Origin: an uncultured Arcobacteraceae bacterium
Lineage (GTDB): Bacteria; Campylobacterota; Campylobacteria; Campylobacterales; Arcobacteraceae
Assembly (NCBI GenBank): GCA_964022095.1
Contig: CAXHZO010000004.1
Span: forward strand, 71,593-135,592
DNA: 64,000 nt
Reading direction: 5' to 3'
Below are positions 61,379-61,555 of the stretch, one piece after another. The notes beneath the pieces were generated by a model. That model worked only from the letters and a program-made list of their open reading frames with translations, did not search any database and had not been told where the DNA came from. Numbering within the stretch: position 1 is the stretch's first letter; every line of letters starts with the position of its first letter. The position numbers and the translations under genes are program-made.

Positions 61379-61555
61379 ATGTACCCTAAAGATGACTTAA
61401 TTATTGATGATGAAATATTAGATATCAACAATATGGAGTGGATTAAAGAATCTACAGAAGTATTAGATGACATAAAATATAACGTATACCACGGAGTTGG
61501 TGATAACTCACTAGTAAAACTACACATAATTGATGAAATACAATTTGAATTATAA
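61379..61555 (+). CDS. Unannotated 58-aa acidic protein resembling the C-terminal module of T1SS-secreted adhesins
   Basis: SD TAAGG at 61366..61370. Translates as MYPKDDLIIDDEILDINNMEWIKESTEVLDDIKYNVYHGVGDNSLVKLHIIDEIQFEL. The stop lies 15 nt before the adhesin ATG. Confidence 0.7.
   Translation: MYPKDDLIIDDEILDINNMEWIKESTEVLDDIKYNVYHGVGDNSLVKLHIIDEIQFEL

Follow-up and report, generated by a model that had tools for sequence, protein, structure and literature searches.

The subject of this study is a small gene in the genome of an uncultured Arcobacteraceae bacterium. The window, by which we mean the whole stretch of DNA that was analyzed, is 64,000 nucleotides long (GenBank assembly GCA_964022095.1, contig CAXHZO010000004.1, positions 71,593 to 135,592 of the forward strand), and positions are counted from its first nucleotide. 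[quoted passage not shown] Judged from profile comparisons, the protein encoded by this ORF, here called the mini-protein, is a homologue of the terminal domain of BapA/Bap/LapF-type T1SS adhesins over the last 40-47 residues of that domain. Because it is related to the very end of such adhesins, in which the export signal normally sits, the mini-protein may be a natural signal-only protein of this T1SS.

Homology to an adhesin terminal domain

A sequence-only reading of the window had claimed a match between the second half of the mini-protein and the C-termini of giant T1SS-exported proteins, and had proposed that it be checked by profile alignment against the C-termini of T1SS substrates. 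By eye the last ~40 residues of the Arcobacter cloacae adhesin are similar to the mini-protein. Eight adhesin domains were gathered by tblastn from the C-terminus of this adhesin, and the mini-protein was not used in collecting them. They come from A. cloacae, an E. coli plasmid VCBS protein, Ponticoccus, Ochrobactrum, Novosphingobium, Duffyella and two Pantoea agglomerans adhesins. When the profile of the mini-protein family (10 proteins, described below) was aligned to the profile of the eight domains with hhalign, the similarity was found with a score of 38.5 (E 1.8e-7, probability 93.8%); none of 300 column-shuffled controls reached this score, the highest being 16.0. The alignment places residues 11-57 of the mini-protein on positions 40-84 of the domain. 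A separate hhalign run with the same two profiles gave a probability of 93.0% and E 3.5e-7, so the claimed match stands at the level of profiles, for one class of adhesins and not for T1SS substrates generally.

The relationship is also seen with hidden Markov models (HMMs). An HMM of the eight domains, run against 5,996 sequences, placed all 10 mini-proteins at ranks 3-12 with E values from 5.3e-5 to 4.7e-3; they scored 15.7-21.9 bits against 6.8 bits for the best of 5,984 decoy ORFs. With an HMM built from six domains the 10 mini-proteins again took ranks 3-12 of the 5,996, right after two of the adhesins from which it had been built, and hhalign of the six-domain profile gave E 5.8e-4, a result which none of 300 column shuffles equalled. 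The positions common to the mini-protein family and the adhesin domain are a tryptophan, a Y-x-x-Y strand and a V-x-L-x-V strand near the end, and in a joint alignment of 13 sequences W21 and Y37 are nearly invariant. It should be noted that the signal becomes visible only with a profile of six, and then eight, domains and not with single termini. When the HMM of the mini-protein family was run against 316 C-termini, the domain-bearing adhesins were weak singly (Novosphingobium at rank 2, Pantoea 3, Ochrobactrum 11, A. cloacae 15, E. coli 36 and Ponticoccus 179).

The domain common to the eight adhesins is ~86 residues long and its first half begins at an N-[IV]-E-x-[IL]-D motif. Unnamed and with no model in Pfam or NCBIfam, this adhesin terminal domain is now delineated. 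The 3' ends of the adhesin genes which carry it are at loci L002, L003, L010 and L012-L016. In five of the eight adhesins (A. cloacae, both Pantoea, Duffyella and Novosphingobium) it forms the extreme C-terminus. The two P. agglomerans proteins are annotated as BapA/Bap/LapF-family and BapA-prefix-containing (WP_233988786.1 and WP_241528050.1), the Duffyella adhesin is WP_225701920.1, and that of the A. cloacae plasmid pACLO is WP_129013771.1. In the E. coli VCBS protein the tail which follows the domain carries a TIGR03661 target domain (0.0067).

The pACLO plasmid also gave the best plasmid matches when the T1SS genes of the window were used in tblastn (41.0% identity for the adaptor, 42.3% for the transporter). 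Its locus has the order TolC, ABC, HlyD, response regulator, 3,430-aa adhesin, LapG, LapD, and no mini-protein-like ORF was found there. Seven adhesins were reached via T1SS genes or the literature and only that of A. cloacae carries the domain; it is missing at the ends of the V. fluvialis, B. stagnalis, Cupriavidus, Aminobacter and Marinomonas adhesins and of ECs_0542 from enterohaemorrhagic E. coli (EHEC). The end of the V. fluvialis adhesin is a confirmed TIGR03661 domain (E 3e-9), and that of ECs_0542 is TIGR03661-like by eye. The annotation of E. coli O157:H7 Sakai divides the adhesin between two genes in a row (L009 11355-31823): ECs_0541 has BapA_N (4.9e-20) and no export end, and ECs_0542 has the C-terminal end. 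At three other loci the slot between adaptor and adhesin is taken by a regulator (L002 21226-21825, L004 21311-21949 and L008 21358-21906). In A. cloacae and Marinomonas this is a response regulator of the LuxR type, in Aminobacter a ribbon-helix-helix protein. Regulators in this slot elsewhere leave room for a regulatory role of the mini-protein.

The mini-protein gene and its family

The coordinates of the ORF, its Shine-Dalgarno-like AAGG and the spacing to the adhesin gene (Table 1) are as the sequence-only reading had claimed: the stop codon ends at 61555 and the adhesin ATG begins at 61571, which leaves a gap of 15 nt. Because of this short gap co-transcription of the two genes is likely. 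The claim that the product is acidic and Cys-free was borne out as well (15 D/E against 4 K/R, pI 4.05, no Cys). The in-frame codon-usage score of the ORF is 0.337, to be compared with 0.471 +/- 0.187 for the real genes of the window (224 segments of 58 codons) and with -0.18 to -2.03 for the other five frames of the ORF. The earlier reading did not mention that the mini-protein and adhesin ORFs are in the same frame, with a start-to-start distance of 192 nt (61379-61573), and are separated by one TAA and five sense codons.

A phmmer search of 1.84 billion representative proteins gave nine matches at E <= 0.001, eight of which are 56-61 aa long. The ninth, a 543-aa protein, matches by a short repeat only and was taken as chance. 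Two further relatives of 58 aa (81% and 76% identical) were found by a word-indexed search. The family consists of 10 proteins of 56-61 aa, which are 39-81% identical to the copy in the window and align nearly without gaps. Ten residues are invariant in all members (W21, Y34, V36, Y37, G39, G41, K47, L48, I50 and E53). All members are acidic (pI 4.05-5.12), eight of them are Cys-free, and an acidic N-terminal segment, residues 5-15, is semi-conserved. Since start, length and residues are kept at such divergence and the codon use is gene-like, these comparisons indicate a translated protein under selection, and by this standard the ORF is a real, conserved gene. Conservation and codon use argue against a decaying remnant and against an extension of the adhesin made by read-through.

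Longer or fused forms were looked for among proteins of 103-2000 aa, and none was found among 10 candidates at E <= 1 or 7,999 at E <= 10; the phmmer search, which covered all lengths, gave no fused form and no giant protein starting with the mini-protein sequence. P0001 has no match in Pfam or in NCBIfam at E <= 0.01. At E <= 10 the 10 members together gave only one chance match in Pfam (TEN_TERT, one member) and two in NCBIfam (one member each). The best match in a PDB sequence search had E 0.1, an ESM Atlas search gave no usable match, and tblastn against phages gave none. Two scans of genome contigs for related loci used N-terminal patterns and were insensitive. None of 125 stretches qualified in the one; the single stretch of 180 which qualified in the other (L001) lies inside a 658-aa ORF of a Tissierellaceae metagenome-assembled genome and was judged spurious.

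An AlphaFold2 (AF2) model built with the family alignment has a mean predicted local distance difference test score (pLDDT) of 61.6, with 72-78 in the core. Strands are predicted at residues 21-29, 32-39 and 47-51, and the acidic residues 1-17 are disordered. Foldseek with this model found nothing in the PDB at E <= 0.001. The complex predicted for the mini-protein with residues 1-200 of the adhesin has ipSAE 0.01/0.00, where the mark is 0.32; the adhesin entered this prediction without an alignment and alone it folds poorly (pLDDT 33.7 for residues 1-200), and the result was counted neither for nor against binding.

Neighboring secretion genes and the wider window

The features around the mini-protein gene are collected in Table 1.

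Table 1. Features of the secretion and adhesin locus in the window
Feature	Position	Strand	Remarks
TolC-like T1SS outer-membrane protein, C-terminal extension of ~180 residues	55615..57471	+	OEP E 1.3e-36; TIGR01844 191.8 bits, under the cut-off of 225.15
T1SS ABC permease/ATPase, LssB type	57499..59658	+	TIGR03375 878.7 bits (cut-off 693.1)
HlyD-family T1SS periplasmic adaptor	59662..61230	+	TIGR01843 401.5 bits (cut-off 208.65), residues 103-522 matched
RNA hairpin over the adaptor stop codon, followed by a U-rich run	61220..61251	+	-13.7 kcal/mol, z = -3.89, matched by 1/200 shuffles
Shine-Dalgarno-like AAGG	61367..61370	+	8 nt before the mini-protein ATG; read from the sequence
Mini-protein gene P0001	61379..61555	+	ATG, 58 codons + TAA; by profile comparison a free-standing homologue of the second half of the BapA-type adhesin C-terminal domain
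Adhesin Shine-Dalgarno GGAG	61559..61562	+	within the 15-nt gap, 8 nt before the adhesin ATG
Giant adhesin, 5' part, 3'-open at the window end	61571..64000	+	Calx-beta repeats E 6.8e-52; LapA domain 3.3e-9

The ATP-binding cassette (ABC) transporter of the LssB type carries a C39-like N-terminal domain (Peptidase_C39, E 8.5e-10). In the adaptor an N-terminal extension of ~100 residues (59662-59970), rich in E, K and D, precedes the membrane segment. The TolC-like protein is 618 aa long and its A. cloacae counterpart (L002 15099-17681) 860 aa; long C-terminal extensions seem to be typical of the T1SS outer-membrane proteins of this group. The ~180-residue C-terminal part of the TolC-like protein has weak SPOR- and DamX-like matches (E 0.0099 and 1.3e-4), both below cut-offs. 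The hairpin at the end of the adaptor gene may weakly terminate or attenuate transcription into the mini-protein and adhesin genes. A consensus scan found no promoter above chance and no terminator, the hairpin being left uncalled.

The cognate adhesin is known here from its 5' part, its C-terminus lying beyond the window. Its N-terminal 200 aa (61571-62170) have no NCBIfam match at E <= 1, and no BapA_N match was found at E <= 10 with a search in which the EHEC control gave 4.9e-20. An assignment of this N-terminus as BapA_N or as a LapA retention module is thus unsupported by the family searches, and the sole pointer to BapA_N is an Atlas lead (0.86) to a cluster in which 21% of the members have BapA_N. 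Near residue 145 there is an A-A-A-A-G stretch, which we take to be reminiscent of LapG cleavage sites. LapG and LapD were found neither among the 46 ORFs scanned from 40 to 50526 nor among the scanned genes from 50553 to 61230; any copies would have to be sited past the adhesin gene. There is no sequence similarity between the mini-protein and the first 809 residues of the adhesin or the N-terminus of the adaptor.

The window has a GC content of 27.4%. A cluster of tRNA-Leu(taa), tRNA-Ser(tga) and tRNA-Cys(gca) at 53953-54263 immediately precedes the genes for the response regulator, the T1SS and the adhesin, with no clear GC break; tRNA clusters are a common landmark of acquired islands. Further away, three tandem flagellin genes of 282 aa are found on the minus strand (5430-8373). 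They adjoin genes for a Maf-like glycosyltransferase, a DegT-type aminotransferase, a methyltransferase and a DUF354 protein (423-5388), and by gene content the region 423-8373 looks like a flagellin glycosylation island. Ankyrin repeats (Ank_2, E 1.1e-62) make up nearly the whole of a 643-aa protein encoded at 11287-13218, an unusual composition for a bacterium.

Possible roles and comparison with known systems

In T1SS substrates the export signal lies within the last 50-60 residues and is not cleaved off. An end of this kind is able to bring about export alone, and for substrates of the HlyA type the last 50-60 residues suffice. Binding of the substrate triggers recruitment of the outer-membrane component. 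On the strength of its homology, we propose as the likeliest mechanism that the mini-protein is recognized by the adjacent transporter and adaptor and then exported, or that it at least occupies the machine, and we hold the chances of this proposal to be evenly balanced. The ABC transporter and the adaptor would recognize the mini-protein as they would the C-terminus of the adhesin, and it would behave as a minimal, signal-only substrate or ligand of the LssB-type T1SS. Probably made from the same mRNA as the adhesin, it would be translated first and fast, and would be finished long before the C-terminus of the giant adhesin. This head start would allow it to occupy or prime free secretion channels or to report on them. 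The sequence-only reading had suggested a decoy, competitor, primer or plug in the control of adhesin export, or a minimal substrate; among the roles of competitor, primer and feedback sensor, each of which the mini-protein might have, we prefer none.

The beta-rich model of the mini-protein counts in favor of the proposal because the T1SEstacker paper (PMC8861453) reports that the C-termini of repeats-in-toxin (RTX) substrates are enriched in beta-strands. Several observations weigh against it. According to that paper the most typical last pair of RTX substrates is [FLI][VAI], and E, K, R and P are depleted in the last 20 residues (PMC8861453). The members of the mini-protein family end in EL, EI, DI, SI, TI or LL, so that none of the 10 fits the pair, and the last 20 residues of P0001 hold two E and one K. 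The family invariants G39, G41 and E53 have no match in the A. cloacae terminus, where the pairwise alignment was the only one inspected residue by residue; these family-specific residues hint at a specialized role. Transporters with a C39-like domain are described as exporters of large RTX cargo in PMC8277102. The A. cloacae terminus taken alone is not significantly similar to the mini-protein (BLASTP E 0.2, hhalign E 0.065), and it ranks 12 of 312 C-termini with the family HMM and 34 of 312 with local hhalign. With the mini-protein as query, phmmer gave no adhesin at E <= 0.001, and a tblastn search of plasmids turned up no genuine match at E <= 10. Finally, in three of the eight adhesins (the E. 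coli VCBS protein, Ponticoccus and Ochrobactrum) the domain is internal and ~100-150 residues follow it; this makes it a unit of folding, which need not be the signal itself.

Instead of addressing the transporter, the mini-protein could be a cytoplasmic accessory protein or chaperone which binds the adhesin in the first half of its terminal domain or at its N-terminus, and which keeps this part export-competent or aids its retention without being exported. We consider this unlikely. The gene for the small, acidic mini-protein directly precedes that of the presumed client, at a distance of 15 nt, and a gene beside that of its client is a layout which resembles that of the dedicated secretion chaperones of other systems. 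It covers only positions 40-84 of the ~86-residue domain and could pair with the complementary half, and the modeled three-stranded sheet would be unstable alone. The lack of counterparts of G39, G41 and E53 in the A. cloacae terminus and the place of the adhesin N-terminus outside the known retention-module and BapA_N families are also in line with a chaperone. However, the literature, as far as our searches reached into it, gave no dedicated T1SS chaperone of this kind, the mini-protein resembles neither the first 809 residues of the adhesin nor the N-terminus of the adaptor, and a relationship to a secretion-proximal C-terminus suggests that the partner is the transporter and not a client. 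A related possibility, which we regard as improbable, is that the adhesin ends with the first half of the domain and that the missing second half comes in trans from the mini-protein, either within the cell or outside it. The mini-protein does correspond to the second half only, its gene lies beside the adhesin gene and in the same reading frame, and split adhesin genes exist, e.g., ECs_0541/0542 at locus L009. By the common view T1SS substrates travel unfolded, and this speaks against a non-covalent pair being exported; moreover, the piece is found at the 5' and not at the 3' end of the adhesin gene, so a simple gene split is no explanation.

Two further explanations deny the ORF a function of its own. 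That it is a leftover of evolution, the functionless 3' end of a lost adhesin gene which happens to be still an ORF, would agree with its homology to adhesin 3' ends, its position in an adhesin locus next to a tRNA cluster and the lack of such an ORF in the A. cloacae locus. It is distinctly improbable in view of the 10 members which keep the start, the length of 56-61 aa and 10 invariant residues down to 39% identity, the gene-like codons and the Shine-Dalgarno sequence, and the failure of the searches to find longer or fused forms. The common frame of the two ORFs, one TAA and five sense codons apart, could also mean that the mini-protein is an N-terminal extension of the adhesin made by read-through of the TAA, or that an assembly error has split one gene. 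To this we give next to no credence: chance alone gives a shared frame in 1 of 3 cases, every one of the 10 family members is predicted as a separate protein with the same end point, no giant protein beginning with the mini-protein sequence was found by phmmer at any length, and after the stop the adhesin has its own GGAG and ATG.

A more specific form of the proposal that the mini-protein is recognized by the T1SS can be drawn from other secretion systems. FlgM of flagella and ExsE of the Pseudomonas type III secretion system are small regulators through which gene expression is coupled to the activity of secretion; each leaves the cell through the machine beside whose cargo genes it is encoded. 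By analogy, the mini-protein could be a secretion-coupled reporter of free T1SS channels, which we think quite unlikely. It would have the recognition end of the adhesin and so would be exported while channels are free. When surface-retained adhesins plug the channels, it would accumulate in the cytoplasm, where residues 5-15 might act on a regulator, e.g., the divergent OmpR-type response regulator at 54703-55407, and adhesin synthesis would thereby be matched to export capacity. The mini-protein has no sequence relationship to FlgM or ExsE and belongs to a different secretion system, so the likeness is one of analogy only. If true, this would be the first T1SS counterpart of feedback of the FlgM/ExsE type.

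Compared with the systems it resembles, the mini-protein is closest to the C-terminal domain of BapA/Bap/LapF adhesins, with which it shares profile homology and an end within a few residues of the alignment. It differs from this domain in being a separate gene of 58 residues and not the end of a protein of several thousand residues, in lacking the first ~39 positions, and in having its own invariant G39, G41, K47 and E53; of the features of the domain, homology is thus present while completeness (~86 residues) and a place in a giant adhesin are absent. With the uncleaved C-terminal signals of the HlyA type it has in common the length of ~50-60 residues, the acidic and Cys-free composition and the position beside ABC, adaptor and TolC-like genes. 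Signals of the HlyA type are parts of larger proteins, and signal-only fragments are engineered as export tags in the laboratory. The mini-protein family departs from them in that the final [FLI][VAI] is missed by all 10 members; among the marks of a T1SS substrate the adjacent T1SS genes are there and the typical C-terminal composition is not. TIGR03661 (VC_A0849 subclass) is likewise an export-associated module at the C-terminus of giant adhesins. It matched none of the 10 family members at E <= 10, whereas the V. fluvialis and E. coli VCBS controls matched, and by these searches the family is distinct from TIGR03661. A double-glycine-leader peptide or bacteriocin of the kind handled by C39 transporters, with an N-terminal leader that ends in GG, GA or GS, was ruled out, since no member has a glycine before G39; the transporter of the window is of the LssB type.

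Judged by its sequence relationships the mini-protein is a new stand-alone form of a known adhesin module. The sequence-only reading knew of no T1SS component like it, and in the literature, within the parts that our searches touched, no such component and no natural stand-alone signal-like T1SS protein turned up. To our knowledge the way in which T1SSs recognize their substrates is poorly defined, and studies of it with giant adhesins are scarce. A natural protein of 58 residues which consists only of the recognition-proximal end of an adhesin would serve as a minimal model substrate or ligand in studies of binding, structure and export. Were the mini-protein to regulate, prime or compete for the channel, it would be a new kind of component beyond the three proteins and the cargo with which a T1SS is usually described, and would offer bacteria a possible way to tune the surface display of biofilm adhesins.

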